Counted from the stretch's first letter, positions 5,117 through 52,758 are shown. The stretch is 64,000 nt of DNA from Candidatus Parcubacteria bacterium (GCA_023443725.1 JAEZTF010000010.1:29948-93947), one strand, 5' to 3'. Numbers and translations are program-made. The notes: a model not told the origin generated them from the sequence alone.

Positions 5117-5139
5117 TTCGCATGCTAAAATAAATCGTT

Positions 5140-5210: not shown

Positions 5211-5225
5211 CTCTTTTTATATTAG

Positions 5226-5296: not shown

Positions 5297-5324
5297 CTGA
5301 AAATTTGATACAATAAGTAACATT

Positions 5325-8704: not shown

Positions 8705-8731
8705 ATTTGATAAATTATTTACACTTTAATT

Positions 8732-23276: not shown

Positions 23277-24366
23277 GATTTGAGTATAGCAGGGTTGTGT
23301 TATTTTTTTCGATATTATGAACCAACCCGATGGCGGCGGCTAAAGTAGTTAAAGATGATCCACCATAAGAAATAAATGGTAAAGGAACTCCGGTTAAAGG
23401 GATAATACCAGCAATTGCTGAAACATTAATTAATGTTTGATAAGTAATCCATAAAGCAGTGCCTGAAACTATAAGAGATTGAAAATTGTCAGGAATAATA
23501 TTGGCTAATTTAAACAAATAAGAAATTAAAGAAATATAAACAATTATTATAGAAAATAATCCGATGAATCCGGTTTCTTCACCAATAACCGCCAGAATGG
23601 AATCAGTAGATATTTTTGGAAGAAAACTATATTTTTGATCTGAATTAGCAAAACCTTTACCAAAAAAACCACCAGAAGCTAGAGTTAAAGTAATTTGATT
23701 ACTATGATATGAAGCCGTGTTTTGATTTTGTTCAGGATTTAGCATAGTTTTTAATCTAGCAGACCTATAAGGAGAAGTTAAAACCAATATCAAACTAATC
23801 GAAACTAAAAAAACACAAAATGTAAGAAGTGAGCTAATTTTGCCACCCCCAAGGTAATAAAGTGAAATAGAAATAGCCGATATTAAAATAGCTGTACTTA
23901 AATTTGGTTCTATAATTATTAGTACAAAAGGAATACCTAAATAAACAACCAAGTTTTTTAATTGACAATTTTCACTTTTTGAAAAAAATTTTGAAAGAAA
24001 TAACACTAAACTCAGTTTTAAAATTTCTGATGGTTGAAATTTAACGATGCCCAAATTCAACCAACGATGAGCTCCAAGAGTTTCATCACTAAATCCTGGA
24101 ATAATAACTAATATCAAAGCAATAATTGAAAAAATAAAAAATAAAGGAATATATTTTTGAATAGTTTTAAGTTTTATCTTAGAAAAAATAAAATAAACTA
24201 CAAAACTAATTATTAACCAAAGACTTTGTTTTCTAAGAAAGAAAAACTTATCTCCAATACTAGTAGTAGCTTCACTAAGTGAAGCAATGGAAATAAAAAT
24301 AATTCCAATAGCAATTAGAATAGAAATTAGGGAAATTAAAGGTGATTTAAATGCTGACGGTTTCAT
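23197..24366 (-). CDS. ftsW: FtsW (SEDS) lipid II flippase/PG polymerase.
   Basis: ASGGFFGKGFANS, GEETGFIGL and PLPFISYGGSS. The start is inferred at MKPSAFK (24366), because the ORF-track N-terminal extension overlaps the upstream gene. There is a His-rich C-terminal tail. Confidence 0.75.
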   Translation of the reverse strand: MKPSAFKSPLISLISILIAIGIIFISIASLSEATTSIGDKFFFLRKQSLWLIISFVVYFIFSKIKLKTIQKYIPLFFIFSIIALILVIIPGFSDETLGAHRWLNLGIVKFQPSEILKLSLVLFLSKFFSKSENCQLKNLVVYLGIPFVLIIIEPNLSTAILISAISISLYYLGGGKISSLLTFCVFLVSISLILVLTSPYRSARLKTMLNPEQNQNTASYHSNQITLTLASGGFFGKGFANSDQKYSFLPKISTDSILAVIGEETGFIGLFSIIIVYISLISYLFKLANIIPDNFQSLIVSGTALWITYQTLINVSAIAGIIPLTGVPLPFISYGGSSLTTLAAAIGLVHNIEKNNTTLLYSNHESKDNKDNHHHRHSSHTSSRTDSST

Positions 24367-25480
24367 TGGCAGATTTGATAATTGAGGGTTTGATATTGAT
24401 AGGATTGTTTTGATTAGAAAATGGAATAAAATCTCGATAACGACTACAGGTATTATTTGATTTATCTTTTTTGGTAATTTCAGAACCAATGATTTTAGAA
24501 TTGTAAAATCTTTTATTTTCTTGAGGGATATCTATTTTTGTTTCTATTGGTAAGAATGATAAAAGATGAAAGAAAAAAAGTGAATTAATATTATTTCTAA
24601 TTTCGATTTGATGGTAAAGATCAAAAGAAGCTGTTAATCTTGGATTACATTCTAAAATGAAAACTTCTTCTTGATCAGTTACAAAAAAATCTAGACCAAA
24701 GAAACCATGATAATCAAAATTTGATAATACATCGGCAAGTTGTTCAGTTAAAATTTTAATTTTTTCAACAATTTTTGTTGGAGCAAACGATGGCCATTGT
24801 CGACCAACAGTAGTGAAAGGGTTTTGAGTAAATTGAGAAAGTCCAGTATATTGTAGTCCCGGTGGACTTTGAATTAGACCAGCGTTGGTAAGACAACAAT
24901 TATTAATTAATGAATAACCAGATAAAAATGGTGTAAATTTTACTGGAGTTTGAAGTGGAATTTTATCTTTTATATCTTCCCAATTTGATGAACTAAAGGT
25001 GCTTTTACCAGCCCAACCGAATCTGGTTTGAAGAACTAAATGTTTATTTAATACTTGTTGATATTTTTCAAAGTTTTCTTGATTGAATTTATCAATAATT
25101 GATGGAATTGTAGGTAAATAATGTTTTTTACAAAGTTTAGAAAAATTTATTTTATCTTCTAAAAAGCGATTTATTTTGGCTGGATTAGCGGCGTAAATCC
25201 AATTTTTTTGATGACAGATATGTTCTATCTTTCCCGAAGGTTTGAATGGAATTATAACTGCTTGGTGGCCAGTTTGTTTAATTTTGTTTTTAATAAAATT
25301 AATAGTTATGACTTCTGATAATAATTTCCCCGAATTTTTAATTTTATTGTTTAAATTCAAAATATCTGAATTTAATAAATAAAAATTACTTATTTCTTTA
25401 ATATTGATAGTTAAAAACTTATCAACACTAATAAAGAAAAAATCAAAATTACTATTTTGAAGTGTGTTAATTAGATTCAT
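24347..25480 (-). CDS. ATP-grasp ligase, D-Ala-D-Ala ligase (Ddl)-like, divergent.
   Basis: C-terminal GLDFFVTDQEEVFILECNPRLTASF matches the Ddl-type (R/G)xDFF...E(V/I)N(T)xP pattern. 377 aa with an atypical N-terminus. Confidence 0.5.
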   Translation of the reverse strand: MNLINTLQNSNFDFFFISVDKFLTINIKEISNFYLLNSDILNLNNKIKNSGKLLSEVITINFIKNKIKQTGHQAVIIPFKPSGKIEHICHQKNWIYAANPAKINRFLEDKINFSKLCKKHYLPTIPSIIDKFNQENFEKYQQVLNKHLVLQTRFGWAGKSTFSSSNWEDIKDKIPLQTPVKFTPFLSGYSLINNCCLTNAGLIQSPPGLQYTGLSQFTQNPFTTVGRQWPSFAPTKIVEKIKILTEQLADVLSNFDYHGFFGLDFFVTDQEEVFILECNPRLTASFDLYHQIEIRNNINSLFFFHLLSFLPIETKIDIPQENKRFYNSKIIGSEITKKDKSNNTCSRYRDFIPFSNQNNPINIKPSIIKSANETVSI

Positions 25481-26298
25481 CTTTTGGCACCGGTTAAAAG
25501 AATAACTGGAAAGTTTCCAACATCGATTCCATTTTTAATCGCTTTTTGATAACCGGCTAAAGCTAATGATCCTTCTAAAGAAGTAAAAATATTTTTAGAT
25601 TCGAGTAGTTGATTGGCTAATAAAATAGCTTCATTTTGAACAGTAAAAGCCGAACCATTACAATTCTTAATATTTGAAATAATTTTGTCTTTTAGGGGTA
25701 TAAATTTTACAGATAAAGCATCAGTAATTAGTCTGTTTTCAGGTATAAAGTTGTTATCAAAGCGTTTGGAAATAGGACAGTTACTGGCCGATTGAACAGC
25801 AAAAATCTTAGTTGAAGGTGGAAGTTTTTGGGCAATTCCGAGAAGGGTAGTACCACTACCAACAGGAATAAAAATACTGCTAATTTGTGGTAAATCTTGA
25901 ATAACTTCTAAGGCAATTTGTTGATATCCGATTAAAGCTGAAGGATCGGTTGATTGACGAAGTAGATAAACTTGTTTACTTTTTGCATATTTAATAGCAT
26001 CGCTAATAGGTTGGTCACTTAAAATAATTTCAGCAGAGTATTGCTTTAAAAGATCTAATTTCTTTTGATTTACTTTTGAAGATAAAAATATAGTTAATTC
26101 AATCTGATTGATTTGGCAAAAATGAGCCGCTGAAATTGCTGCATTACCAGTACTAGAGATAACAGCTTTAGTGAAACCAAGATGTTTTAAGTTTTCTATT
26201 TGAAACGGTATGGCTCTATCTTTAGCTGAACCGGTTGGGTTTTGGTCTTCCCTTTTTAAATAAAAATTGTCTATTTTAACTAAAGGAGTATTTGTCAT
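25477..26298 (-). CDS. Short (273 aa) fold-type-II PLP-dependent enzyme (Trp-synthase-beta superfamily, threonine-synthase/cysteine-synthase/racemase-like).
   Basis: PLP-lysine motif YLKREDQNPTGSAKDRA, Gly-rich loop VGSGTTLLG. Confidence 0.6.
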   Translation of the reverse strand: MTNTPLVKIDNFYLKREDQNPTGSAKDRAIPFQIENLKHLGFTKAVISSTGNAAISAAHFCQINQIELTIFLSSKVNQKKLDLLKQYSAEIILSDQPISDAIKYAKSKQVYLLRQSTDPSALIGYQQIALEVIQDLPQISSIFIPVGSGTTLLGIAQKLPPSTKIFAVQSASNCPISKRFDNNFIPENRLITDALSVKFIPLKDKIISNIKNCNGSAFTVQNEAILLANQLLESKNIFTSLEGSLALAGYQKAIKNGIDVGNFPVILLTGAKR

Positions 26299-26341
26299 AT
26301 AATTGGCTAATTATACTAATTATATATTTTTTATCTTTAAT

Positions 26342-26506
26342 ATGACAGAAACAAAGAAAGTTAAATGTCCTGATTGTGGAGCTGAAATTTTATTATCTGG
26401 AACTGAAGAAGTCGGTGATATTTTGGAATGTGGCGAGTGTGGTACTGAAGTAGAAATTACTTCTATTGATCCTCTTTCTTTTAGAGAATTAGTCGAAGAG
26501 AAATAA
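26342..26506 (+). CDS. LysW-like zinc-ribbon protein (amino-group carrier protein family-like) of 54 aa.
   Basis: KCPDCGAEILLSG...GDILECGECGTEVEITSIDPLSFRE matches the LysW ribbon pattern CPxCGAE...CxxCGxE(L/V)E(V/I)...DPL. The C-terminus is ...LVEEK rather than the canonical ...EDWGE. Confidence 0.5.
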   Translation: MTETKKVKCPDCGAEILLSGTEEVGDILECGECGTEVEITSIDPLSFRELVEEK

Positions 26507-27061
26507 TCTGTAAATACCTTGATTCTCAAAATTCAGATCAGTTAAATCGGCTTGTCCATAATGAACTCCCCTATTATCTCTTGAACTATCGACATATAAA
26601 ATAATATTGTCTTTTTTCTCGATGATAAACAAAACATGATGACCATTCTTTTGACGAACTAGGTCGCCAGTTTGAATATCAGTAATATTTGTAATTTTTT
26701 TTGATAAAGGAGTGGAAGTTAACATGTCAGCAGAAGTTTTTCGAGGATTAAGATCTACTTTTTTATTGATCAAAGAACCATAGAATATTAGCAACTGACA
26801 AACTAATCCGGAGCAATCGATACCGATTTTATTTTTCTTTTGAAAATTGTAAATTTCTCTTTCTGAAAGATTTAATAATTTTAAATTTTCTTGGTTAGCC
26901 AATTCAACAGTTTTAAGAGCGATATCTTTAGCGTTTCCCTTACCTCCCATAAATCCCTCTTTGATTATTTTGCCGTCTTTTAAAGTATTCTTCCAATATG
27001 GAATACCGATGTATTTACTGATTTCTAATTTTAATTGATTGATTAATTCAGGCCCAACCAT
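26489..27061 (-). CDS. NlpC/P60-family papain-like peptidase/amidase.
   Basis: Catalytic Cys motif GIDCSGLV, downstream GDLV...GHHVLFI (His). The start is inferred at MVGPEL. Confidence 0.55.
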   Translation of the reverse strand: MVGPELINQLKLEISKYIGIPYWKNTLKDGKIIKEGFMGGKGNAKDIALKTVELANQENLKLLNLSEREIYNFQKKNKIGIDCSGLVCQLLIFYGSLINKKVDLNPRKTSADMLTSTPLSKKITNITDIQTGDLVRQKNGHHVLFIIEKKDNIILYVDSSRDNRGVHYGQADLTDLNFENQGIYRLFLFD

Positions 27062-28077
27062 AATCCAAAAATAGCTAAAATAATACCAGCTAACCAAGCA
27101 CGAGTAACAATTTTAGGTTCTTCCCAACCAATTTTTTGCAAAGTAAGATGAATAGGAGCAGCTGGAAAAACTTTTTTACCAAAATATTTTTTACTAAAAA
27201 TCTGAATAGCACTACTCATACCTTCAATGATGAATGGAGAACCAATAATTAATAATGGAACTATTTTTCCTAAAAGAATAGCAATTACGGCAAATGTAGC
27301 GCCAAATGATAAAGCTCCGACGTCACCCAACCAAATTCTGGCTGGATAAACATTAAAATATAAAAAGGCGATTAATGATCCTAACCATAGTGACAAAAAT
27401 AAAGAAGTTGGAGTATCTAATGAGGTATTTGATAAAAACCAAAAAGCAAACAAAGCTATCATTAATAAACCACAAGACAGACCATCTAAACCATCAGTAA
27501 TATTAAAAAAGTTGGTAAAAGCAGTGATGATGATGGTGGATATGGGGATAAAAAATAAACCTAAGTGAATTGGTCCAAAAAAAGGTATGTAGAAAAAATC
27601 TATTTTTAATTTTAGATAAATAAGAAAAGAAATAATAACTGATAAAAGTAATTGAAGAATAAGTTTATGAATTAATCTAAGTCCAAAAAAACCAGTTTTT
27701 TTGAAACCAAAAAACTTATAAATATCATCATAAAGTCCAAGAATACCAAAACTAATAAAAGTAAAAAAGATTATTTCTAACTCATAATTTATTTGAAAAT
27801 TAGAAGAAATAAATATTTTGGAAAATTTTAATATAGGAAATAGAATTAAAAACATAACACAAACAGCAATGATGATTAAGAGTCCTCCACCTACAGGTGT
27901 GCCACTTTTTGAGTTATGAAATTTATCAAAAATAGGTGTTTTGTTATTTTGAAAATCGGTTGTTTGTTGTTTTTGACGTTGAAATTTGAGTTTGTAAAGA
28001 AGATTGATAAATGGAACAACTAAAGTACTAGAAATAAAGAAGGAAAAAAGTAATAGACCTAAATAAAGATGAATCAT
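27043..28077 (-). CDS. mraY: Phospho-N-acetylmuramoyl-pentapeptide transferase.
   Basis: NFFNITDGLDGL, about 10 TM helices. Confidence 0.9.
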   Translation of the reverse strand: MIHLYLGLLLFSFFISSTLVVPFINLLYKLKFQRQKQQTTDFQNNKTPIFDKFHNSKSGTPVGGGLLIIIAVCVMFLILFPILKFSKIFISSNFQINYELEIIFFTFISFGILGLYDDIYKFFGFKKTGFFGLRLIHKLILQLLLSVIISFLIYLKLKIDFFYIPFFGPIHLGLFFIPISTIIITAFTNFFNITDGLDGLSCGLLMIALFAFWFLSNTSLDTPTSLFLSLWLGSLIAFLYFNVYPARIWLGDVGALSFGATFAVIAILLGKIVPLLIIGSPFIIEGMSSAIQIFSKKYFGKKVFPAAPIHLTLQKIGWEEPKIVTRAWLAGIILAIFGLWLGLN

Positions 28078-29413: not shown

Positions 29414-30787
29414 TTAGTGAATATTTTTAATAATTGATTTAATAATTTTATTACCAGACAAACCACCAGAACTCATATATATAAGGATATCATTTGATGA
29501 TAAATGATGTATATAGTAGGCTTTTATTTCTTTTTCGATAGGAATATAAATCAACTTTGATCCAATTTCTTGTTTAAAGTCTTTAGCAGTAGCACGAGAT
29601 TTTTTGTCTACATTAGGGTTAAATCTAATTGGTCCTAAAACTATTTCATTAGCTTTTGTAAAAGCTTTTTTTAAGCCAATTAAATTACTTTTATATTGGG
29701 TAAATGAGGCATGAGGTTGAAAGAATACTTTTATTAATTTATCTGGAAAATGAGTTGTTAAAGCTTCAATGGTTGATTTAATACGATTTGGTGATTGAGC
29801 GAAATCTTCAAAAAACAAAATATTTTTTTGTTTATCAATTAATTCTAATCGCCTTTTAACTCCTCTATAAGAAAAAACAGCTTTTTGAATAAAACGAAAA
29901 CTAATACCTAATTGATCAGACATACTAACTGCAGCCAGAATATTCTCAAAGTTAAATTGACCGATAAGAGTAGTTTGAATAGATAACGGACCTTTGGGGG
30001 TATGGATTAATAAGTTGGTTATATCAGATTTAATATTTATTTTTTCTATAAAATAATCAGATTCTGGAGAATTATAGGAAACAATTTTAGCTTTTGAATA
30101 AAGACTAAGTTTTTTGGTTTGACAGCCAAGAGAATTGATTAAAAGGGTGCCATTTTCTGGTAGTCGATTAATTAATTTCTTAAAAGCTTGAAAATTTTTT
30201 ATTTTACTAGAATAAGAATCTTTATGTTCCCAATCGGCACTAGTTAAAATTAAATGTTTAATTGGATAATATAAAAACTTAGCTTTTCGATCTAATCCAT
30301 TAATTGATTCATCGGCTTCAACGATAGACCAATTAGATGGAGAGAAGTTAATAGAGTTCATCTTATTTTTGGCGTATCCACCAAACATGTAATTTGGATC
30401 TTTTTTAGCTTGAATGAAAATCCAAGACAATAGACTAGTGATAGTAGTTTTTCCAAAACTACCAGCAATTAAGACAGACTCATCTTTAATTAAGTTTTGA
30501 GCTAAATAATTAGTAGCAGAAATATAGGGAATTTTTAGTTTTTTTATTTGATTAAATTCTTTTTTGGTTTTTTCAAAAGAAAGATATGATGATCCAATAA
30601 TAGCCAAATCAATATTAGTATTGATTTCTATCGAATTGATCGATATATCCGCTTTTTTTAACATAGTACTAATTGGGGGATAAATTTTTTCTTGATCTGA
30701 TCCGGTTATATAAACTCCTCTTTTTTTGAGATTAACTGCCAGAGGAGCAGTCATGGTTCCAGCTATTCCGACTATGTGAATATGCAT
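29414..30787 (-). CDS. murC: Mur ligase, MurC/Mpl-like.
   Basis: N-terminal Rossmann IHIVGIAGTMTAPLAVNLKKRGVYITGSD (MurC-type), P-loop AGSFGKTTITS. Confidence 0.6.
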   Translation of the reverse strand: MHIHIVGIAGTMTAPLAVNLKKRGVYITGSDQEKIYPPISTMLKKADISINSIEINTNIDLAIIGSSYLSFEKTKKEFNQIKKLKIPYISATNYLAQNLIKDESVLIAGSFGKTTITSLLSWIFIQAKKDPNYMFGGYAKNKMNSINFSPSNWSIVEADESINGLDRKAKFLYYPIKHLILTSADWEHKDSYSSKIKNFQAFKKLINRLPENGTLLINSLGCQTKKLSLYSKAKIVSYNSPESDYFIEKINIKSDITNLLIHTPKGPLSIQTTLIGQFNFENILAAVSMSDQLGISFRFIQKAVFSYRGVKRRLELIDKQKNILFFEDFAQSPNRIKSTIEALTTHFPDKLIKVFFQPHASFTQYKSNLIGLKKAFTKANEIVLGPIRFNPNVDKKSRATAKDFKQEIGSKLIYIPIEKEIKAYYIHHLSSNDILIYMSSGGLSGNKIIKSIIKNIH

Positions 30788-30822
30788 ATTAGTAAATAGC
30801 TAATAAATAGTTAATAGTTGAA

Positions 30823-31419
30823 TTATTTTTCATATGGAAGCCATTGATTGTCTTTAAAATATTCAAATCCAGGCATATTACGTTTATAGAATCCAGTTTC
30901 AATAGAAAAACGACCTAAATAACAAAATTGAAGATTTTGTTGTTGACTGTCAACAATGGTTTGTAACACCAATCTAATAGGTAAATTACTATGATTATAT
31001 TTAGGATTATAAAAAACATAAGCAATATGACTAATAGAGTTAGAAAAATAACATATTGAATAAGCAATTATCTGATGATTTTCATTATACCAACTATAAA
31101 TAGTATTAAAAATATGATTAGTAAATGTTTTTTTGACTGAACTTATGGGAAAATCCCAACCTAATTGTTTTATCCAAGAAAAAATTTCTTTTTGAATATT
31201 AAGATCAAATTTAAAATCGTTCAAATTAGTTTTAATAAAAGAAAAATTATCAGTTTTTCTTAAAATCCTTCTATTTTCTGAACTGAGATTAAACTTGGAT
31301 AAATTTGATCGACAACTACTATCCTGATACCAAAGATCTTTTTGGTTTCTTTGAGGAAGGAATCCTTGTTGATAATTTAATTCTATAGATTGATTGTTGG
31401 TTAAATTAAATTGGGTCAT
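30823..31419 (-). CDS. ATE/Bpt-family (arginyl/leucyl-tRNA-protein transferase C-terminal domain-like) protein embedded in the mur operon.
   Basis: IAYVFYNPKYNHSNLPIRLVLQTIVDSQQQNLQFCYLGRFSIETGFYKRNMPGFEYF resembles the ATE_C signature (AVYtFYDP...SLG...YvYLGYwI..c.KM.YK..F.P.E). It overlaps murE by 4 nt, which suggests translational coupling. Confidence 0.45.
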   Translation of the reverse strand: MTQFNLTNNQSIELNYQQGFLPQRNQKDLWYQDSSCRSNLSKFNLSSENRRILRKTDNFSFIKTNLNDFKFDLNIQKEIFSWIKQLGWDFPISSVKKTFTNHIFNTIYSWYNENHQIIAYSICYFSNSISHIAYVFYNPKYNHSNLPIRLVLQTIVDSQQQNLQFCYLGRFSIETGFYKRNMPGFEYFKDNQWLPYEK

Positions 31420-32735
31420 ATTTTTTTTAATTTTAAAGCAGTTCTAAAAGCTTCTGTTTCTGACCAAGGATATTCAGTATTTCCATGAAGAATAGTATCT
31501 TCATGACCTTTACCACAAGCAATCACAACATCATCGGGTTGGGCTAACTTAATAGCTATATTGAAAGCGTCCTGTCGATTGGGAATATTAAAATAAGTAA
31601 ATTTTTGGTCAATCTTTTTTAGAATATCATTTATTTGTTTTTGATTTTCAATTTTTTGAATGTCAACAAAATTGGATTTATTAGGATCAATACCATTGAT
31701 TATTTGTTGATTAATTTGACTAATATCTTCGTTTCTAGTGTCGTCTGAAGTAATAATGGCAATATCAGCTAGACTAGAGACTACTTGACCCATTTGAGGT
31801 CGTTTTGTTTGATCTCGTCCGCCTGTGGCTCCAAAAATAATAATAATTTTACCTTTAGTAATTTTCTTTAATGAAGAAAGAGTTTTTTCTAAAGCGTTTG
31901 GAGTATGGGCAAAATCAACAATTGTTTTAAATTTAAAATTATTTTTAACTTCTTCTCGACGACCTTTGGTTTCGGGAAAATTTTTAACTGTTTCGAGTAA
32001 GAATTGTCGATTAATTTTTAAGTTATCAATAATTCCTAAGGCAACCAATATATTATTAATCTGATAAAAATAATTACTATCAGTGGTTATGGTTAGTTTA
32101 TTTACTTTAAAACTTAATTTTTTATTAGTTAATTTAATATCTTTAGCTTGATAATCTGACTTTTGGTCAACACTGTAAGTTGAGTAAGGAATTTGAATCA
32201 TAGGTTTAATTATTTGATATGACGAATCGTCTTTATTGATAATGCCATAATCTGATTGAGAGAAAATTTTTGCTTTAGACTGAATATACTCTTCCATGTT
32301 TGAATAATAATCTAAATGCTCATGTGAAGTGTTGGTAATAGCTGCAGTTATAAAGTGGCAACCTAAAAATCGATATTGATCAAGGCCATGAGCAGTAACT
32401 TCACAAACTACATGAGTAACTCCTGCAGCTAACATTTGACTAAGTATTTGCTGAAATAATTTTGGATCTGGACTAGTCATATGTAAACCAGTACTTATTT
32501 CTTGATTATTTCCAAACTTAGCGCCTATTGTAGTAATTACACCGGCATTAATACCAGCTTTTTTTAAAATTTCATAAACTAAAATACAACTAGTTGTTTT
32601 ACCATCGGTTCCAGTAATACCAATAAGTTTTAGTTTTTTTGCTGGAAAATTATGTTGAAGACTGACAAAAAAGTTTTTTGGGTAATGCCAGAAAAGATTT
32701 TTTATTTTTTGAAAATTGATCGATTTTAATGACAT
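31416..32735 (-). CDS. murE: UDP-MurNAc-L-Ala-D-Glu:diamino-acid ligase.
   Basis: P-loop GITGTDGKTTS, DFAHTPNALE motif, position after ftsI. Confidence 0.7.
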   Translation of the reverse strand: MSLKSINFQKIKNLFWHYPKNFFVSLQHNFPAKKLKLIGITGTDGKTTSCILVYEILKKAGINAGVITTIGAKFGNNQEISTGLHMTSPDPKLFQQILSQMLAAGVTHVVCEVTAHGLDQYRFLGCHFITAAITNTSHEHLDYYSNMEEYIQSKAKIFSQSDYGIINKDDSSYQIIKPMIQIPYSTYSVDQKSDYQAKDIKLTNKKLSFKVNKLTITTDSNYFYQINNILVALGIIDNLKINRQFLLETVKNFPETKGRREEVKNNFKFKTIVDFAHTPNALEKTLSSLKKITKGKIIIIFGATGGRDQTKRPQMGQVVSSLADIAIITSDDTRNEDISQINQQIINGIDPNKSNFVDIQKIENQKQINDILKKIDQKFTYFNIPNRQDAFNIAIKLAQPDDVVIACGKGHEDTILHGNTEYPWSETEAFRTALKLKKI

Positions 32736-36216: not shown

Positions 36217-37536
36217 TTATTTATTTAACTGCTTTTCCATCCAACTGTCAATTTTATCGATAGAAACTCTAATTTGTTTCATAGTGTCACGATCACGAAT
36301 TGAAACAGTGTTATCTTCTAATGTTTGATAATCAACTACAGTACACCATGGTGTTCCTATTTCATCTTGACGACGATATTTTTTCCCAATATTACTACTA
36401 TCATCCCAATCAATAGAATATTTTTGACTTAATTGTTTATAGAGCTTTTCGGCTTTGTCAATTAATTCTGGTTTATTGGCAGCTAGAGGGAAAATAGCCA
36501 TCTTATAGGCAGAAACTTTAGGGTTCACTTTTAAAACAGTTCTAACATCTCCTGACTCAGTTTTCTCTTCTTGGTAAGCATCGAGAAGCATAAAAAAGAA
36601 ACTACGATCGACTCCTCCAGAGGTTTCAGTAATCCATGGGATATATCTCTCATGTGTAGTCGGATCGATATAAGATAGGTCTTGTCCACTAAACTTAGAA
36701 TGTTGAGTTAAATCATAATCTGATCGCCAATGTATTCCTTCCATTTCGGCCCATCCCCAGGGAGCATTATATTCAATATCAAAAGCTTTTTTAGCATAGA
36801 AAGCCAATTCATCCTTGCCATGTTCTCTAAATCTTAAATTATCTTGATTGTTAAATAATGATTTATACCAATTGATACGAGTTTCTTTCCAATATTCAAA
36901 CCATTTATCCATTTCATCTGGATGAACAAAATATTGAATATCCCATTGTTCGAATTCTCGAGTACGATAAAGGAAATTTTTAGGAGTAATTTCATTTCTG
37001 AAAGCTTTTCCGATTTGAGCGATACCAAAAGGTACTTTAACTCGAGTAGAGTCGACAATATTTTTAAAATCTAAATAAATAGTTTGGCAAGCTTCTCCTC
37101 GTAAATAGGCATGAAGTTTTTCACCTTCTATAACTCCAATTTCAGTTTCAAATAATATATTGTATTTTCGTCCCTCGGTAAATTGTCCACCACATTCTGG
37201 ACATTTAGACGGATCATCAAGTAAATCAGGTCGAAAACGTTTGTGACATGATTTACATTCAACCATGATATCGGCAAAATTTTTGACATGTCCTGAAGCT
37301 TCCCAGACTCGAGGGTGAGTAATAATTGATCCGTCGATCATAACAACATCTTGTCGAGAGGTAACATTATCGTGAATCCAAAGATCTTTCCAATTTTTTT
37401 TCATGAGAGAACCGATTGGTCCGTAATCATAAAAACCTTGAACACCGCCATAAATTTCAGAATTTTGAAAAATTATTCCTCTGCGTTTACAGAGACTGAC
37501 GATTTTGCTGACAAGATCATTTTGATTGTCTGACAT
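36217..37536 (-). CDS. glyQS: Glycyl-tRNA synthetase, alpha2 (GlyQS) type.
   Basis: Class II motifs with characteristic FRNEITPKNFLYRTREFEQ and YIPWITETSGGVDR. The start is moved to MSDNQ with RBS AGGAGA. Confidence 0.85.
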   Translation of the reverse strand: MSDNQNDLVSKIVSLCKRRGIIFQNSEIYGGVQGFYDYGPIGSLMKKNWKDLWIHDNVTSRQDVVMIDGSIITHPRVWEASGHVKNFADIMVECKSCHKRFRPDLLDDPSKCPECGGQFTEGRKYNILFETEIGVIEGEKLHAYLRGEACQTIYLDFKNIVDSTRVKVPFGIAQIGKAFRNEITPKNFLYRTREFEQWDIQYFVHPDEMDKWFEYWKETRINWYKSLFNNQDNLRFREHGKDELAFYAKKAFDIEYNAPWGWAEMEGIHWRSDYDLTQHSKFSGQDLSYIDPTTHERYIPWITETSGGVDRSFFFMLLDAYQEEKTESGDVRTVLKVNPKVSAYKMAIFPLAANKPELIDKAEKLYKQLSQKYSIDWDDSSNIGKKYRRQDEIGTPWCTVVDYQTLEDNTVSIRDRDTMKQIRVSIDKIDSWMEKQLNK

Positions 37537-37705
37537 AGTTCTCCTAAAAAACAATTAATATTTTTTAGGGATCCCGATAAATCAGGACGGTTCCACCCTA
37601 TTTGATAAATTATTTTTTCCAGTTAATTTATCCTCTTTTATTTTTCGGCTCGAGATTTGCCAAATCTGTCATTGCCTTGATGTTGAAGTTTATCTTGTTT
37701 TAAGA
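37537..37705 (-). ncRNA. Candidate minimal (glyQS-type) T-box leader.
   Basis: The minus strand contains AATAGGGTGGAACCGTCC, which matches the T-box consensus AGGGUGGNACCGCG at 12 of 14 positions. A GGC-A specifier candidate lies upstream. An A/U hairpin overlaps the SD just before the ATG. Confidence 0.4.
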
Positions 37706-40722: not shown

Positions 40723-41318
40723 TATTTAAATAATTTATTGCTTTCTAATGGTTTCTCGATGATACTTTCAAAAAAATTTTTGATTAATTTTTGGGTGACA
40801 GGATAATCTTTTTTTTGAAAAGAAGTAATTATTTCTGGTGGTATTCCAAATCCTAAATTGTCTAAGAGTTTTATTTCATTGTCTATATATCGGTTGACTT
40901 GGTTTTTGTTGATAGATTCAATAATGTTTTTGGAAATAGAGTATATATTTTCGATTTGTTGATTTTCAGCAATAAATCGATTGATTAGTTCTAAAAAATA
41001 AAACAGTAAATTTAATTGAGTTAAACTTTTATCTGTTTGAAGAAATTGACTAATAGTTTGAGCTTCAGATATCCAAAGAAAATCATTTTTTTGATAGAGG
41101 TGAACCTTGATAATATTACCTAATTGAAGACTACCAAGACGACTACTTCTAATGTTTTTAGCACCTTTAGCTAAAGCAACAATCTTTCCATCTCTTGGGG
41201 TTAATAAAGTAATTAAACTATCAACCTCTTTTGAATTACGATGATTAATAACAATCGCTTCTGTTGTTTTATATTTATCCATTAGAGAGATACTTTTATA
41301 GTTTTGTCGGCTGCCCAA
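40722..41318 (-). CDS. recO: RecO-like recombination mediator, short form lacking the zinc motif.
   Basis: N-terminal OB-fold pattern EAIVI...SKEVDSLITLLTPRDGKIVALAKGAKNIRSSRLG. The probable start is MDKYKTT. Confidence 0.45.
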   Translation of the reverse strand: MGSRQNYKSISLMDKYKTTEAIVINHRNSKEVDSLITLLTPRDGKIVALAKGAKNIRSSRLGSLQLGNIIKVHLYQKNDFLWISEAQTISQFLQTDKSLTQLNLLFYFLELINRFIAENQQIENIYSISKNIIESINKNQVNRYIDNEIKLLDNLGFGIPPEIITSFQKKDYPVTQKLIKNFFESIIEKPLESNKLFK

Positions 41319-43240
41319 CTAAAAGTATCCATTTTTTTACCATTGATAGTTAAATTATATTCAACGGCTTTAGTACCTGGTTGTTTTTGAAGTAACAAAG
41401 AATAAGTTGATCCAACTTTAACCCCAGATTTATATTGAACAGAAACTTTACTGCTGGATTTTGGATACAAAGGATATTTATCTCCATAAAAACCTTCAAA
41501 AACTTGTTTATCTAACTCTTCATATTGAACAGTTTCAACTTCTGATCCGGTCATTTTGATAAGAGTTGAACCTTTTGGTACATAAAATCTAAATAGATCT
41601 CTATACTTAGAAGCATTTAGACAAAGATCACCTTTTTCAAGATTACAATTGGAAGCAGCATATGGATTGGTATAAGTAACAGAAACTTTGTGTTCCGCAA
41701 CTCCATTTTTGATAGTAATATCATGATCAATTTTTTGAGTAATAAACATGTTACTTTTGGCGCTAGCAAAATTAGCATCATTAAGATGAAGGTAATCGAT
41801 GGTTTCTGGTGTTTGAGTAATTTGGCCACTAATATTAGCTGAATTTCCTACTTCAGCCATATTTTTATCAGTAAAATAAACTAAAATATGTTTTTCATTA
41901 ATATTTTTAAAGAAAGCTTCGATTAGGCTGGTCATTTTTGACTTTTCAGATCCCATAACATTGGCTAATAAAGCAGACATAAGAGGATTTAAGAAATCTT
42001 TTCGATTTGGTTCAATGTAGTTTCTAGGTCGACCAGCCATCCATTCAATTTCGTAAATAACAGAAGGACAACCATTACATCTATTGTCAGGTTCGGCAGT
42101 AAATGTACCAACTCTAGTATCTAATTTACCTAAAACTTTAATCATATCGGCTAAAAGTTGAGTATCAATAGCAATAACAGCATCAAATGATTCCTTTGAT
42201 TTACTAGCTTTTTGATAATTTTCTAAGAAAAGTTGAGCATCAGTTGGAAAGTCAGGAGATAGATTACTATCTCGAAGATAAAGACTAGGGACATTTATAT
42301 GATAAGAAGAAATTAAACGTGGAGCTTTACCGAGAGTGCCTAAACGATCATCTAAATCATAAATATTACTAGCGGTTCCTGGAGTTACTTTGCCGTTAGA
42401 AACTGTCATAGTACTATAAGCAGTCCAAAAACCACCACTTGGTCGAAGTTCACCATCGTTTTGGAAAACCATCAAATAATGTCGAGGATCATCTTTTCCT
42501 AACAACCAAGAAATTTTTGATAATAAAGGTTTACCATTTTTAACTAATTGACCAACTTGAGTGACACTTTCTTGGGCTTGAGATATTTTTGATCTAATTT
42601 CGATATTCTTAAATTTTTCAGGATAACGATTTGGATTAATTTGATTAAGCTCAGTTTCAATATTGGTAATTTTTGTGTCTAATTCGTCTAAATATGGAAT
42701 TAAACCTTCGGCAGATTCGGTCAAGAAAGTAATTCTATCAGCAGTAGTTTTTTCACTACTATCAGATCCACCTTTGATGCCAAGAAAATCTTGATACGGT
42801 TCAATGGCTTGAATAACTATTTGACCAGCATCTATACCTTGAAATGCAATATTAATAACTTTTTGACCATCTTGATAATATTTGTTTAATCCAGGAATTA
42901 TTTTTAATAATCCCATTTTTTTATAAGTTGATTCAATTGTTTTAGTGTCAGTTTCAATATTGACTAAACTTTGATTGACTTTGGCTAAATCTTTATCACT
43001 AATAGCTTGCTGAATTATTTGATATTCACTTTTTATAGAATTGACTTTGTTTAATATTTTCTTACCTGGAACGAGAACAGTGAAAAACAAAAGAGAAAGT
43101 ACTAAAGTTATGACAATCAAGAATATCGATAAGATAGTAATGATTTTTTTACCTTTGTTTTTTTTCATAGGTTTTATCAATGATGTGTTTACTACATCTG
43201 ATATTGGTTCAGTTTGAATTGGTTTAATAAAATTATCCAT
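41282..43240 (-). CDS. DUF4012-like membrane-anchored extracellular protein.
   Basis: N-terminal TM. RHYLMVFQNDGELRPSGGFWTAYSTMTVSNGK resembles the DUF4012 HYL..FQN.aE.R..GG signature. 652 aa. Confidence 0.5.
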   Translation of the reverse strand: MDNFIKPIQTEPISDVVNTSLIKPMKKNKGKKIITILSIFLIVITLVLSLLFFTVLVPGKKILNKVNSIKSEYQIIQQAISDKDLAKVNQSLVNIETDTKTIESTYKKMGLLKIIPGLNKYYQDGQKVINIAFQGIDAGQIVIQAIEPYQDFLGIKGGSDSSEKTTADRITFLTESAEGLIPYLDELDTKITNIETELNQINPNRYPEKFKNIEIRSKISQAQESVTQVGQLVKNGKPLLSKISWLLGKDDPRHYLMVFQNDGELRPSGGFWTAYSTMTVSNGKVTPGTASNIYDLDDRLGTLGKAPRLISSYHINVPSLYLRDSNLSPDFPTDAQLFLENYQKASKSKESFDAVIAIDTQLLADMIKVLGKLDTRVGTFTAEPDNRCNGCPSVIYEIEWMAGRPRNYIEPNRKDFLNPLMSALLANVMGSEKSKMTSLIEAFFKNINEKHILVYFTDKNMAEVGNSANISGQITQTPETIDYLHLNDANFASAKSNMFITQKIDHDITIKNGVAEHKVSVTYTNPYAASNCNLEKGDLCLNASKYRDLFRFYVPKGSTLIKMTGSEVETVQYEELDKQVFEGFYGDKYPLYPKSSSKVSVQYKSGVKVGSTYSLLLQKQPGTKAVEYNLTINGKKMDTFSWAADKTIKVSL

Positions 43241-43268
43241 AGATAAGTTTAAACAAAATTATTACAAA

Positions 43269-43907
43269 TTACCATCTAGAAAGCATTGACAACGGTGTTT
43301 TGATGATAATAGTTATTTCTTCTATAAAAGATTGTTTTTTAATATAATCAGCATCCATTTTGGCTCTTTGTCTAAAAGATATATCATTTCTTCCGGATGT
43401 TTGCCAAACACCAGTGATACCCGGTTTAGCAGAACGAATAATTTTTATATATTTTTTGGTATCTGGATACTTTTTTTCTTGTTCTTGAAGTTCTTCTTCA
43501 CGATAGGCACGTGGTCCAATTAAACTCATATCCCCTTTTAAGACATTAATTAATTGAGGAAATTCATCGATAGTTAAAGATCGAATCTTTTTACCTATTG
43601 GAGTAATTCTAGGATCTTCTGACATTTCCAACTTCCAACCATTTTCTTTATATTTTTTCCAAAGTTCAGGATAATTTTCTCTTAATCTTTTATCATTATC
43701 TCCAGTGTACATAGATCTAAATTTGTACATCCAAAATTGTTGACTGTCTTTGCCAACTCTTTTTTGTTTAAAGAAGATTGGTCCTGGTGAACTTAATTTA
43801 ACTAAAATCATGGTAACTATCATGATTGGAGAAAATATTATCAATAAAACTAATGAACCAGTAATATCGACAGTTCTTTTGAAAATTTGGAAAATTTGTT
43901 TTTTCAT
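43269..43907 (-). CDS. Small monotopic phosphoglycosyl transferase (Bac_transf/PglC-WbaP C-terminal type).
   Basis: KRTVDITGSLVLL...SPGPIFFKQKRVGKDSQQFWMYKFRSM...DEFPQLINVLKGDMSLIGPR. Confidence 0.85.
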   Translation of the reverse strand: MKKQIFQIFKRTVDITGSLVLLIIFSPIMIVTMILVKLSSPGPIFFKQKRVGKDSQQFWMYKFRSMYTGDNDKRLRENYPELWKKYKENGWKLEMSEDPRITPIGKKIRSLTIDEFPQLINVLKGDMSLIGPRAYREEELQEQEKKYPDTKKYIKIIRSAKPGITGVWQTSGRNDISFRQRAKMDADYIKKQSFIEEITIIIKTPLSMLSRW

Positions 43908-43908
43908 T

Positions 43909-44997
43909 TTAATTTAAAAAATATTTTTTTAATTTTTTCTTTTTGACTATTTGTCCAACAATATCTCTAACTTTAGCACTACCATTTTTAGAAATATTAC
44001 AGATTAATAAACCATCTGGAGTATCTATAACAGCTAAATTATTAACATCGATTAGACTAACTAACTTGTTTCCTGAAGTTGAAATAAGGCAATTTTTGGA
44101 ACCAATTTCTAAATGATCAATATTTTTATTTAAAACAGCGATGCCATTTTGATCTTTGTCTAATTGATTATAAATAGATTTCCACTCACCTACATCACTC
44201 CAATCAAATTCAGCTGGAATAACAAGCATATTTTTTGATTTTTCGGAGATAGCCTGATTAATATTAAGGTTTTCTGATTTGTTGTAAATTGATTCAACTT
44301 GTTTGGAATTAGGATTCTTTACAAGTTCTTCGAAAAATTCATAATATTCAGGATGAATTTTTTGAAATTCTTCTAACATAACATTTATTTTGAAAGTATG
44401 AATGTCTGAATTCCAAAAACTGTTTTTTTTAATTAATTTTTCGGCAGTATCTGAATCTGGTTTTTCAATGAAAAAACTAATATTGGCATAATGATCACTT
44501 TTCTGTTGAGGCACAATATATCCAAAAGATGGATTTGGCCAAGTTGGTCTAATACCGATAGTAATTATTTTTTCCATTTTTGCAGCTAAATTAAAAGCGT
44601 AGTTGATAGATTTTTTGAACTTAAGAGATTTTGTGATGTATTGATCTGAAGCACTAGTAGTAATAATAGCTGTTGGATCAAGTTGATAAATTTTGCTCAT
44701 AGCAAAAATATAAGCCATGGCAGTATTTTTTTTGGCAGGTTCGTATAGAAAATTTTCTAACGGTATTTTTTTACCAATTAATTTTTCCAATTTTTCTTGA
44801 TATTTCTGATTGGAAACAATAAAAATATTTTTTGAAGGACAAACTTTTTTAGCTCGATTAAGTGTTTGTTCAATAAGGCTTTTTTTGCCAATTAAAGTTA
44901 AAAATTGTTTTGGATGATTAGCTCTAGATTGAGGCCAAAGACGAGGACCAGTACCTCCACAAAAAATTACAAAATAGTGATTTGGTGTTGTTGCCAT
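43909..44997 (-). CDS. manC: Mannose-1-phosphate guanylyltransferase (nucleotidyltransferase).
   Basis: VIFCGGTGPRLWPQSRANHPKQF. Confidence 0.7.
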   Translation of the reverse strand: MATTPNHYFVIFCGGTGPRLWPQSRANHPKQFLTLIGKKSLIEQTLNRAKKVCPSKNIFIVSNQKYQEKLEKLIGKKIPLENFLYEPAKKNTAMAYIFAMSKIYQLDPTAIITTSASDQYITKSLKFKKSINYAFNLAAKMEKIITIGIRPTWPNPSFGYIVPQQKSDHYANISFFIEKPDSDTAEKLIKKNSFWNSDIHTFKINVMLEEFQKIHPEYYEFFEELVKNPNSKQVESIYNKSENLNINQAISEKSKNMLVIPAEFDWSDVGEWKSIYNQLDKDQNGIAVLNKNIDHLEIGSKNCLISTSGNKLVSLIDVNNLAVIDTPDGLLICNISKNGSAKVRDIVGQIVKKKKLKKYFLN

Positions 44998-46073
44998 AGT
45001 TGATCAATTTCTTGTTTAAAGTTTAACATAAAATTTTGAGTAGAAAATTGTTGAGCTTGTTTAATGCAATCGCTTTTTTTAAATTCTTTTGGATTGAATT
45101 TTTCTAAAACATGCGTAAGTGACTTAGTAGTTTGTTTTTCAAAAAACAAACCTGTTTTTTTATCAATTACAGTTTCGGTAATACCACCTTTTCTTAGGGC
45201 AATTACTGGTTTTCCACAAGCCTGAGCTTCAAGTGGAGTTAGACCAAAATCCTCTATTTGTGGGCAAATTAAAGCTTGACAGTTTTGATAAAGATCTAGT
45301 AATTTTTGAGCTGATACTTTACCAGTAAAAATAATATTTTTGTCTTTTAATTTATTTTTTAGATCAATTAAATCCTTTTTATCACGACCTTGACCTACAA
45401 TTATTAATTTTTGATTAAGTTTATGGCAAGCACGGATAGCTAAATCTATTTTTTTGTGACGAACTAATCGTGAAACAACTAAAAAATATTTTTCGATTGG
45501 CTTTTGAGTTGATGGCTTAAAAAAATTTATATTTACACCAGGGTAAATAATTTTGCTGAATCGATGATAATGTTCCAAAATTCGTTGTTGAACAGTTTTG
45601 GAGTTACAAAGCAAATAATCTGGCCTTTGGCCATAAATAAAATCGGTTTTTTGATATTTATTGAGCAATGGTTTTAAAAATTTAAATTGAAGTGGTGTTT
45701 GATAGGTGTAACGGTTGGTGTTGTGAAGATAACAAACAAAAAGAGTTTTTGGTGAAGTAATCAAACAATGACCGCAAACTTGAGTAGTAGAAATGACTAT
45801 ATCAAATTCAGAGAAATCAAATTGCTCTAGGGCTATGCCATAGAAAGGAGTGTGAAATAAACTGTTTTTTTTAGTTAAAGAAAATTTATCAATGACTGAT
45901 GGAATAATTTTGATTTTCTTGGGAAGCCATTTAGTTTTTTTGGAATTATAAATGGTAGTGAATAAAGTAGCTGAGGGATAAATTTTTAAAATATTAAGAA
46001 GAACTCTTTCGGCTCCACCCCATTGATTGAGCCAGTCATAAAAAATAGCAATCTTCAAGTTCTTATAATCCAA
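44967..46073 (-). CDS. GT4 glycosyltransferase.
   Basis: EDFGLTPLEAQACGKPVIA (EX7E-type). Confidence 0.8.
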   Translation of the reverse strand: MDYKNLKIAIFYDWLNQWGGAERVLLNILKIYPSATLFTTIYNSKKTKWLPKKIKIIPSVIDKFSLTKKNSLFHTPFYGIALEQFDFSEFDIVISTTQVCGHCLITSPKTLFVCYLHNTNRYTYQTPLQFKFLKPLLNKYQKTDFIYGQRPDYLLCNSKTVQQRILEHYHRFSKIIYPGVNINFFKPSTQKPIEKYFLVVSRLVRHKKIDLAIRACHKLNQKLIIVGQGRDKKDLIDLKNKLKDKNIIFTGKVSAQKLLDLYQNCQALICPQIEDFGLTPLEAQACGKPVIALRKGGITETVIDKKTGLFFEKQTTKSLTHVLEKFNPKEFKKSDCIKQAQQFSTQNFMLNFKQEIDQLWQQHQITIL

Positions 46074-46076
46074 TTT

Positions 46077-47210
46077 TTAGTTTTTAACTAATAATTTCTT
46101 ATAGACGGTAAATGTTTGTTGAGCAGTTTTGGTCCAAGAATATTTTTTGACTTGAAGATAACCTAATTTTATTAATTGGTTTCGTAATTCTTTTGATTTA
46201 TATAATTTATCGATTTGTTCAACCAAATCATTGGTATTATTAGGATCAAAATAAAGGACTGAGTCTTGATAAATTTCTGGAAGACAACTATTGTTTGAAG
46301 AAATTACAGGGCAACCAAGCGCCATAGCTTCTAATCCTGTTAAACTGAAACCCTCCATAAAAGATGGGTGGACTAAGGCTAAAGCTTGGCTATAAATTTC
46401 TCGAAATTGTTCGTCAGGAATGTAACCTAAAAATTCAACTCGTTTATTAAGGTGATATTTTTTAATCAAAACTTCAAGTCTTTCGGTAAAATAATTACGA
46501 GCACAAATAATTTTTAATTTTAAATAAGGTAATTTAGTTAAAGCTTCAATTAATATTGAAGGATTTTTGTGAGGGTAAAGATTGCCTGTATATATAATAT
46601 AAGGATTTTTTGAATTATATTTGATTTTTGATTGGCTTAATTGATTAATCTTGATTAAAAAATTTGGATCAACTGCTTCATGAGTAGTGGTTACTTTCTG
46701 AGGATCAAGATGAAACTTGTCAATTAAATAATCACGCCAAAAATCACTAGGAACAATAATAGAACTGGTTTTGATGGCAATATGAGTGGTAATGAGATAG
46801 AAAAAATGTTTGATCCAATAAATACTGGCATTTTTAGTAGTGTTGAGACGACCTTTAAAAAAATGTTTGATTAAATCATGAATAGTAACAATTGATTTAC
46901 CAAAATAAAAAATTGGTTTATTGAAATGAGTGAAATGAACTAAATCTGGATGAAGTTTTTTTATTAAGAAAGGTAAGAATATCTGTTCTTTAATAGAATA
47001 ATGTTTAATATTGGTGGTAACATATGCAAAATTATTACCTAAATCTTTCTTAATCTCAGTTTCTAGGTCGGGATAAATTATCAAAGTATATTGAAACTGA
47101 GAAAAACCAGGTTGGCCAACTAAAGCCTTAAGTAAATTTTTAGTATATCGACCGATACCAGTATGTTTAGGACCGTAAAGTCTGGCATCAATAACTATAT
47201 GTTGTTTCAT
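46077..47210 (-). CDS. GT4 glycosyltransferase.
   Basis: EGFSLTGLEAMALGCPVISS. Confidence 0.8.
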   Translation of the reverse strand: MKQHIVIDARLYGPKHTGIGRYTKNLLKALVGQPGFSQFQYTLIIYPDLETEIKKDLGNNFAYVTTNIKHYSIKEQIFLPFLIKKLHPDLVHFTHFNKPIFYFGKSIVTIHDLIKHFFKGRLNTTKNASIYWIKHFFYLITTHIAIKTSSIIVPSDFWRDYLIDKFHLDPQKVTTTHEAVDPNFLIKINQLSQSKIKYNSKNPYIIYTGNLYPHKNPSILIEALTKLPYLKLKIICARNYFTERLEVLIKKYHLNKRVEFLGYIPDEQFREIYSQALALVHPSFMEGFSLTGLEAMALGCPVISSNNSCLPEIYQDSVLYFDPNNTNDLVEQIDKLYKSKELRNQLIKLGYLQVKKYSWTKTAQQTFTVYKKLLVKN

Positions 47211-48130
47211 AAGTATTTAGCTTTGGTGGTGCGTTTTAATTCTAATAATCTAATCCCCCACATAACTAATTTTTGAATTGGTTTGGGATATTTTTTGATC
47301 AAATTTTTTTCGTAAAAGATTCTCATAGCATTGACGCTAGCTTGAGCTACTTTAACTTTTGTTTCTCGTGAAGCTTTTGACAGATGTTGACTTTTACTAA
47401 CTAAACCAGAAGAAACACCCTGGTAATGGGTAATCTTACAAGTAGGATTAAAAAATAGCTTAAATCCCTGTTTTTTAATTTGATAACAAAAATCCAGATC
47501 TTCACCATAAAAGAAATAATCTTCATTCCACCAACCAATTTTTTGACCAACTGAATATTTAACCATTAAAAAAGCACCAACACAGGCTTCAATTTGATGA
47601 ATTTTTGAGGTATCTAAATGGCCTAAAAAATATCCAGCAAAGAGACGTGATTTGGGAAATAATTTAGTTAGACCAGAAAAATAACAAAAAGCTCGCCAAG
47701 GAGTAGGAAATCCACGATGACATTCTGGTTGCATTTTGCCAGTTAGAGCTAAAGTTATATAGCAAGTAGCAGCATCGACCTTTTTATCTTGATCAAAGAA
47801 CTCAATCATATTTTTGAGAGTACTCGGATCAACAATAGTATCAGGGTTCAAAAACAAAACATATCTTGTTTTTGAATTGATTTTTTTAACACCTTGGTTG
47901 TTACCATGAGCAAAACCTTTATTATCAGTAAGAAGTAAATATTTGGTAGAAATTTTTTGATTATTTTCAACTAAATTTTTGGCTAATTGAATACTATTAT
48001 CAGTGGAATTGTTATCGACGATAATAACTTCAATTTTATAATCTCCTAATTTTGATTTATAAATACTTGCAAGACATTTTTGAAGATAATCTTGAGAATT
48101 ATAATTTAAAATAACAATTGAAAGATCCAT
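47207..48130 (-). CDS. GT2 glycosyltransferase.
   Basis: LSIVILNYNS...VIIVDNNSTDNS...FLNPDT. Confidence 0.8.
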   Translation of the reverse strand: MDLSIVILNYNSQDYLQKCLASIYKSKLGDYKIEVIIVDNNSTDNSIQLAKNLVENNQKISTKYLLLTDNKGFAHGNNQGVKKINSKTRYVLFLNPDTIVDPSTLKNMIEFFDQDKKVDAATCYITLALTGKMQPECHRGFPTPWRAFCYFSGLTKLFPKSRLFAGYFLGHLDTSKIHQIEACVGAFLMVKYSVGQKIGWWNEDYFFYGEDLDFCYQIKKQGFKLFFNPTCKITHYQGVSSGLVSKSQHLSKASRETKVKVAQASVNAMRIFYEKNLIKKYPKPIQKLVMWGIRLLELKRTTKAKYL

Positions 48131-48131
48131 A

Positions 48132-52755: not shown

Positions 52756-52758
52756 ACT

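Follow-up and report, generated by a model that had tools for sequence, protein, structure and literature searches.

To our knowledge, the ATE/Bpt family is known only for tagging proteins for degradation, and the only aminoacyl-tRNA-dependent steps of cell-wall synthesis that we know of are those of Fem-type enzymes. Bpt combines an ATE_N with an ATE_C domain, and the eukaryotic ATE1 proteins (PDB 8tzv, 7wfx, 7tif), which have at least 500 residues and transfer Arg to proteins, join a Zn/Fe-S N-terminal module to a C-terminal domain. FemX of Weissella viridescens and the FemXAB/MurM enzymes are built of two GNAT lobes, with approximately 335-420 residues, and in MprF the aaPGS domain (DUF2156), which aminoacylates the hydroxyl of a lipid, is joined to a membrane flippase. 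The catalytic Lys is K304 in klAte1 (of the pair Y303/K304), K305 in FemX (of F304/K305) and their counterpart in aaPGS, the basic alpha-3 helix of these three enzymes is the model for a role with tRNA, and R80 of klAte1, within GWRRSG, makes up with Y87 a basic pocket for the acidic N-terminal residue (PMC9351520). Mpl and LysW/LysX offer precedents for one of the readings weighed below. Mpl, a MurC-family ligase taking preformed peptides, serves in known bacteria for recycling, beside a complete MurC-F set, and LysW, a small Zn-ribbon carrier that ends in EDWGE and works with an ATP-grasp enzyme, belongs to lysine and arginine synthesis. We know of neither system in company with a tRNA-dependent transferase.

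The present work concerns a 198-aa ORF, X, in a stretch of DNA of 64,000 nucleotides, called the window (29.8% G+C). An earlier note on this DNA had proposed that X, an ATE/Bpt-like enzyme, adds an amino acid to a peptidoglycan precursor, and had called such a cell-wall role not described for the family; no such report was found in the literature searched, in which we also met neither an account of ATE_C-like genes in dcw clusters of the CPR nor a survey of murD across these lineages.

X as an ATE/Bpt homologue

X lies at positions 30823..31419 and starts with ATG; the ORF proposed earlier is thus present, and is on the minus strand, the earlier note having given none. The strings on which its ATE_C-like character had been based all occur in the protein (AYVFYNP at residues 133-139, LQFCYLGRF at 163-171 and YKRNMPGFEYF at 178-188). 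With 563 homologues of the same length and a dN/dS of 0.08-0.10 against three orthologues, X is a real gene under purifying selection, and its conservation equals that of its Mur neighbours. The close homologues that carry a name belong to Candidatus Shapirobacteria, Woesebacteria and Microgenomates, which makes the source a CPR bacterium, one of the ultra-small bacteria. When 1.84 billion representative proteins were searched exhaustively with the profile, only 228 clusters were returned at E <= 0.001, and the X family is therefore small. A repetitive 478-aa protein from the representative search (P0269), with nine short matches to the X profile, was discarded as almost certainly a low-complexity artefact and no relative.

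X is an ATE/Bpt homologue with a GNAT-type aminoacyl-tRNA-transferase fold. It matched PF04377 (ATE_C) at E 7.2e-7 and 30.3 bits, above the Pfam gathering score of 25, and its family profile aligned over X residues 33-195 with a canonical Bpt (P0264, a weak match of the representative search; ATE_N 78.9 bits, ATE_C 139.7 bits) at an HHalign probability of 98.6% and E 1e-15, the YK of X falling on the YK of the Bpt. Fold comparison agreed with this homology, as the overall fold fits the ATE/Bpt class and the top structural neighbours are all enzymes that use aminoacyl-tRNA. The structure model has one GNAT core and a small N-lobe, and by sequence and model X is soluble, with no membrane domain. 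Like Bpt, it has the GNAT core, the YK pair, an (S)xxRR basic helix and a YLG motif, but it lacks the first 35-70 residues and all of the ATE_N Cys ligands (C23, C26, C95 and C96 in klAte1), and GFRRSG has become GF(LPQ)R. The Pfam check suggested earlier was therefore borne out for one domain and not for the other: ATE_C was matched by 76 of 88 diverse family members and ATE_N (PF04376) by 0 of 88, no Cys cluster occurs in the N-terminal 80 residues, and the family is devoid of the N-terminal Cys4 site. Because ATE_N is absent from all 88 members scanned, X is not a complete Bpt; it is a member of the ATE/Bpt aminoacyl-tRNA transferase superfamily without ATE_N and its Cys site.

Each curated family (Bpt, Ate1, the FemX group) is failed by X on at least one defining feature. 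Sequence identity to ATE1 is only 12-18%, and in searches of PDB sequences the close-family profile found no ATE1 match and a wide X-family profile reached ATE1 only at E 0.08. The FemXAB/MurM-type GNAT fold with its aromatic-Lys catalytic pair is found in X, but the two-lobe Fem build is absent, and PF02388 (FemAB) gave no match at E <= 1. Neither by sequence nor by close structure does X belong with Aat, the Leu/Phe-tRNA-protein transferase, and it does not have the aaPGS/MprF arrangement of DUF2156 joined to a membrane flippase domain, being a soluble protein linked to Mur ligases.

True homology to Bpt, together with the JGI annotation of X as arginyl-tRNA-protein arginylyltransferase, would agree with an ordinary N-degron enzyme that places Leu or Arg on N-terminal Asp or Glu for Clp degradation and whose position among dcw genes is incidental. 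We regard this as the least probable of the readings considered. The seven NCBIfam arginyltransferase models matched X residues 35-196 weakly, at 18-31 bits against cut-offs of 170-358, so that X falls below every one of their equivalog cut-offs; ATE_N and the Cys4 site are missing; and relatives with as little as 21-30% identity still adjoin Mur ligases, one lineage having X fused with MurC. Among the window ORFs scanned, those outside 1-8700 and 60552-62118, there is no clpS, clpA or aat. Unlike Bpt, X stands in a dcw cluster and not in an N-degron context, and its acceptor is probably no protein.

The family signature consists of the SSENRR(I/V)L helix and the invariant residues G19, R37, G169, Y178 and K179. 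The segment SSENRRILRK (S46-K55; 31255..31284, minus strand) is basic and helical in the model (residues 47-55), with S47, E48, N49 and R51 at least 90% conserved among 88 family members, and the SSENRRIL motif alone fetched 538 relatives from metagenomes. By analogy with the basic helix of the better-known enzymes, it is a putative binding site for the tRNA acceptor arm. The pair Y178-K179 (30883..30888, minus strand), invariant in 88/88 members, is the equivalent of Y303/K304 in klAte1 and F304/K305 in FemX and is predicted to be catalytic, a role carried over from those enzymes (PMC9351520). At G19-Y31 (GFLPQRNQKDLWY; 31327..31365, minus strand) X reads GFLPQR...Y, with G19 invariant and with R24 and Y31 invariant in the close family. 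This segment is outside the HHalign block, and it is by the R24-Y31 spacing of 7 residues, as in R80/Y87 of klAte1, that it may be the counterpart of the GFRRSG...Y acceptor-pocket segment of Bpt/Ate1.

A GNAT core is also compatible with an acyltransferase that uses acyl-CoA and no tRNA, for instance one N-acylating a diamino acid. The best PDB sequence matches of the family profile are indeed acetyltransferases (3d8p, E 5.5e-4), the Acetyltransf_6 GNAT model (PF13480) is matched by 36/88 members, and one member is labelled 'GNAT family N-acetyltransferase' at NCBI. We nevertheless find an acyl-CoA-dependent X highly improbable, as the top structural neighbours all use aminoacyl-tRNA and X has the invariant YK and the basic helix that characterise the tRNA-dependent branch. 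Moreover, the window protein and its close family have NLPIRL, with no Gly, at the place of the GNAT CoA-pyrophosphate loop Q/R-x-x-G-x-G/A; some distant family members have LGxG there.

Placement beside Mur ligases

As the earlier note had stated, X is packed inside the mur operon. The murE stop (TGA) and the X start share the 4 nt of an ATGA (31416..31419, minus strand), and a spacer of 35 nt (30788..30822, minus strand) separates X from the next gene; this spacing also agrees with what had been claimed, but the plain name murC does not hold, the gene encoding a MurC/Mpl-family ligase with Mpl hallmarks. A terminator scan found no minus-strand terminator-like site between murE, X and murC, and promoter-like matches were at chance level in a promoter scan.

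A genome scan, single-protein look-ups and the SSENRRIL metagenome scan yielded 103 loci bearing X (1.03 Mb), 7 of them close loci from a genome-contig scan with the X protein alone, and these were annotated against the window proteins and the dcw proteins of E. coli K-12. In the Shapirobacteria-type cluster (46 loci), murE preceded X in all informative loci (43/43) and a MurC-type gene followed it (41/41). For a lineage of 29-38% identity, whose X has approximately 261 aa (27 loci), the figures were 24/27 for murE upstream and 18/20 for murC downstream. A third lineage (15 loci), arranged as ATP-grasp, NlpC-like, mraY, X, murC ... PLP enzyme, had mraY ahead of X (11/11) and murC behind it (12/12). 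Parcubacteria/Kaiserbacteria present an isolated murC-X pair outside any dcw cluster. Behind this Parcubacterial pair comes the gene of a conserved protein of 280 aa (L018 8836-9678; also in L019 and L020) that has no NCBIfam match and no Pfam family on record.

One lineage encodes an in-frame X::MurC fusion of 645 aa; its occurrence in three assemblies and its 27-residue Pro/Ser-rich linker ruled out an assembly artefact. Altogether, X adjoins or is fused to a MurC-type ligase in 78 of the 86 informative loci, and murE is not adjacent in the third lineage and in Parcubacteria; the steadiest partner of X is the MurC/Mpl-like ligase, not MurE. We are not aware of fem genes normally lying between murE and murC. 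The natural Mur chimeras described so far (MurE-MurF, MurG-MurC, MurC-MurB, MurC-Ddl, MurD-FtsW, MraY-MurG) do not include X::MurC, and the enzymes fused in them need not be consecutive steps (PMC10214165).

Since all 103 loci had been chosen by X, sampling from the MurC side was added as a control, and X was found between murE and murC in 19/19 informative places of this narrow set (two populations, approximately 20 samples). The exceptions among the X-bearing loci were X beside tgt (L021-L023), X fused to a PPDK-like kinase (L017) and one short contig. In the tgt loci (L021 7524-8237 and 10404-16022; also L022 and L023), X is near two class-II aminoacyl-tRNA synthetase genes with no mur genes near, and in L021 a Cas12a-like protein, cas1 and cas2 are a few kb from X. 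The fused protein of L017 (P0179, 809 aa; 8001-10430) joins an X relative to PPDK_N and PEP-utilizers domains, as in PEP-synthase/rifampicin-phosphotransferase-like kinases, and a domain-1-less MurE-type gene is 4.4 kb upstream.

The placement of X in the mur cluster is thus robust, being kept in the close loci, in distant lineages and from the MurC side, as the earlier note had asked of related genomes. That note had named a missing ATE_C or Fem fold match, or a gene absent or variable in related dcw clusters, as grounds against its reading; the fold match is significant and the placement conserved. The fixed position and the MurC fusion suggest a role for X in the building of the cell-wall peptide.

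A non-canonical dcw cluster

The dcw cluster occupies 19.4-37.6 kb on the minus strand, flanked by glyS, in the order glyS, a gene for a 236-aa membrane protein, rsmH, ftsL-like, ftsI, murE, X, MurC-type ligase, murA, mraY, NlpC/P60-like, PLP enzyme, ATP-grasp, ftsW, murG, a short ORF, ftsA and ftsZ. A large surface-polysaccharide region is also present in the window at 41282-58747, with DUF4012, a Bac_transf priming transferase, a nucleotidyltransferase, some ten GT1/GT2/GT4 glycosyltransferases, Wzy_C-like and hexapeptide acyltransferase genes, and an LPG_synthase_TM (MprF-flippase-like) protein without an aaPGS domain.

The murE-type ligase (31416..32735, minus strand) carries a DDTR motif, whose Arg is typical of DAP-adding enzymes, and NCBIfam scored it higher as a DAP ligase (342 bits) than as a Lys ligase (178 bits). 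It has no N-terminal domain 1: the 342-bit alignment to TIGR01085 begins at model position 78, the Pfam matches are confined to the M and C domains, and the P-loop is at residue 42 (median 43 in 64 loci) versus 116 in E. coli. Domain 1 of MurE binds the UDP moiety. It is equally absent from MurF-type ORFs (L064 15438-16646, L087 10226-11407), in which the P-loop is at 30-48 versus 107 in E. coli, and the genes directly 5' of domain-1-less MurE and MurF leave no space for a missing exon. The MurC-type ligase keeps domain 1, with its P-loop at approximately 114.

This last enzyme (29414..30787, minus strand) scored 231 bits as murC and 173 bits as mpl in NCBIfam, both below cut-off, and its best PDB sequence match is the Psychrobacter Mpl 3hn7 (127 bits), MurC entries reaching at most 120. 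It has an Mpl-type IYPPIST motif, an Mpl-specific Tyr and an Mpl-only loop (ESINGLDRKAKFLYY; LDRKAKF versus FDKRSKF), and homologues are named 'Mpl' at JGI and only 'Mur ligase family protein' at NCBI. The loop was called unique to Mpl in the structure paper on that enzyme (PMC3060825).

In the 103 loci, which are neighbourhoods of X and not whole genomes, no ORF had murD as its best match, and alongside this absence murF-type genes (10 loci), ddl (5 loci, 344 bits), murA, mraY, ftsW and murG were found. Between mraY and ftsW, where murD canonically lies, are four genes (24347..27097), which recur in other loci (L064 17589-20539; L014 4564-6534 and 11198-12151) and co-occur with X in the distant third lineage. 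They encode an NlpC/P60-like protein (26489-27097, minus strand), a LysW-like carrier (26342-26506, plus strand), a fold-type-II PLP enzyme (25477-26298, minus strand) and an ATP-grasp enzyme (24347-25480, minus strand). The NlpC/P60-like ORF as listed has a TTG start and a 55-nt overlap with mraY, its true start being probably a downstream Met. It contains the catalytic DCSG motif, and its sequence has no obvious signal peptide, for which reason a cytoplasmic location is suggested.

The LysW-like protein is a 54-aa Zn-ribbon, transcribed divergently between the NlpC/P60-like and PLP genes, with 48.6 bits to Pfam Zn_ribbon_LysW and E 3.5e-8 to Thermus LysW (3wwl). Its gene was found in 45 of 123 loci (e.g. 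L064 18455-18607, L075 14916-15077). In the clear matches of the two main lineages the C-terminus is (E)EEK in place of EDWGE; the weak matches of the third lineage stop short of it. A further reading is that X aminoacylates some other envelope-related acceptor bearing a free amine or hydroxyl, such as the C-terminal Lys of this carrier (...EEK), an amino sugar nucleotide or a lipid, and that its link with MurC reflects shared regulation or a complex only. We think this unlikely: X has no membrane domain, its tightest linkage is to murE and murC, the carrier module lying several genes off, and the Parcubacterial murC-X pair has no carrier gene nearby.

The surrounding pathway is non-canonical, with no murD nearby and with MurE and MurF devoid of domain 1, and a different acceptor for X is therefore allowed. 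A possible, if doubtful, scheme is that the stem peptide is built off UDP-MurNAc. Domain-1-less MurE and MurF would assemble it, possibly on or with the LysW-like carrier; X would add residue 1, placing, in the manner of Bpt, L-Ala or Gly from tRNA on the alpha-amine of D-Glu or of gamma-D-Glu-DAP(-D-Ala-D-Ala); and the Mpl-like ligase would join the finished peptide to UDP-MurNAc. The ATP-grasp enzyme, PLP enzyme and NlpC/P60 protein of the murD slot would perhaps take part, and the scheme would apply to several CPR lineages (Microgenomates/Shapirobacteria-type and some Parcubacteria). With the peptide free or carrier-bound and attached by the Mpl-like ligase, a Bpt-like enzyme acting on the alpha-amine of an acidic residue would be the obvious choice for making the bond between residue 1 and Glu, and MurD would be unnecessary. 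Such a scheme would account for MurC rather than MurE as the steadiest partner of X.

Much of the neighbourhood would find a place in such a scheme: the want of a murD best match despite so many companion genes, with other genes in its slot; the restriction of domain 1, among the Mur ligases, to the MurC-like enzyme; and the Mpl-only loop, Tyr, closest structure and JGI name of this 'MurC'. In addition, the target of Bpt/Ate1 is the alpha-amine of N-terminal Asp/Glu and X has an Arg-Tyr pair with the R80/Y87 spacing, while the murE-X-murC order, the X::MurC fusion and the isolated murC-X pair fit sequential steps. The substrates of Mpl-type enzymes include L-Ala, L-Ala-D-Glu and tri- to pentapeptides (PMC3060825). 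However, peptidoglycan synthesis was called 'essentially complete' in a paper on a complete Microgenomates genome (PMC7143001), and in a Bordetella MurE-MurF chimera the MurF without its N-terminal cap still uses UDP substrates (PMC10214165). The absence of murD was, besides, read from X neighbourhoods alone, NCBIfam ranks the ligase higher as MurC than as Mpl, fusions of non-sequential Mur enzymes are common, and the ATP-grasp enzyme could equally form the first peptide bond. We know of no tRNA-dependent synthesis of a stem-peptide backbone bond; if the scheme were true, it would bring a tRNA-dependent step into the peptidoglycan backbone together with a new pathway order, which would be categorically new. 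That X replaces MurF, or the ATP-grasp enzyme replaces Ddl, was also considered and rejected, since one lineage has genuine ddl and murF-type genes alongside X and the module.

Proposed role and its implications

The reading that we prefer, tentatively and at somewhat under an even chance, is that X is a Fem-like enzyme of ATE/Bpt descent which adds a branch to the peptidoglycan stem peptide. The homology, fold, conserved catalytic residues, selection, linkage to Mur ligases and fusion are firm, and use of aminoacyl-tRNA and the nature of donor and acceptor are what we infer from them. In the UDP-MurNAc-peptide, residue 3, added by MurE, bears the sole free amine on its side chain, and it is for this reason, with a MurE of DAP-type motif directly upstream, that a Fem-like role is our first choice.

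According to this proposal, X would be a soluble, aminoacyl-tRNA-dependent transferase of the ATE/Bpt lineage that lost its Zn/Cys N-terminal module in the CPR and was recruited to cytoplasmic stem-peptide synthesis. It would be co-transcribed and is probably translationally coupled with MurE, and it is probably in physical association with the MurC/Mpl-type ligase. The SSENRRILRK helix and the GNAT cleft would hold the acceptor end of the aminoacyl-tRNA, the ester would be attacked by a free amino group next to a carboxylate on the stem-peptide intermediate, and K179, with Y178, would stabilise the tetrahedral intermediate, like K304 of Ate1 and K305 of FemX. As the putative acceptor we favour the distal amine of the diaminopimelate-type residue that MurE puts in place.

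Glycine is a tentative candidate for the donor, on the weak hint of a linkage between glyS and the cluster that two deep lineages share. The window gene (36217..37554, minus strand; NCBIfam 563 bits for glycine-tRNA ligase) is directly upstream of the dcw cluster, and glyS precedes the gene for the 236-aa protein, (mraZ) and rsmH in L064, L068-L070, L076, L079, L080 and L091, an adjacency kept where the X proteins are only approximately 30% identical. Reading the donor amino acid from four pocket positions mapped from Bpt (I132, R149, Q153, F165) was abandoned, the mapping being too indirect.

Several observations weigh against a Fem-like X. Its steadiest neighbour is the MurC/Mpl-like ligase, for which a branch-adding enzyme has no obvious need, and some family members are away from mur genes, as in the tgt loci and the PPDK-like fusion. 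The Fem-like model gives no account of why murD is missing, why MurE and MurF are without domain 1 and why 'MurC' has features of Mpl, and branched stem peptides are, as far as we know, uncommon where the peptidoglycan is of the meso-DAP type. The gene neighbourhood is more unusual than the earlier note recognised, and its Fem-like reading was reasonable but incomplete. Because the proteins involved are all small and soluble, a direct in vitro test and complementation of E. coli mur mutants are feasible.

A Bpt-derived enzyme tied to Mur ligases in the CPR would link cell-wall synthesis and the ATE/Bpt family, and would supply a function for a family now labelled 'hypothetical', 'GNAT' or 'arginyltransferase'. 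It also hints at a route to peptidoglycan precursors in which the textbook order MurC-D-E-F is not followed.
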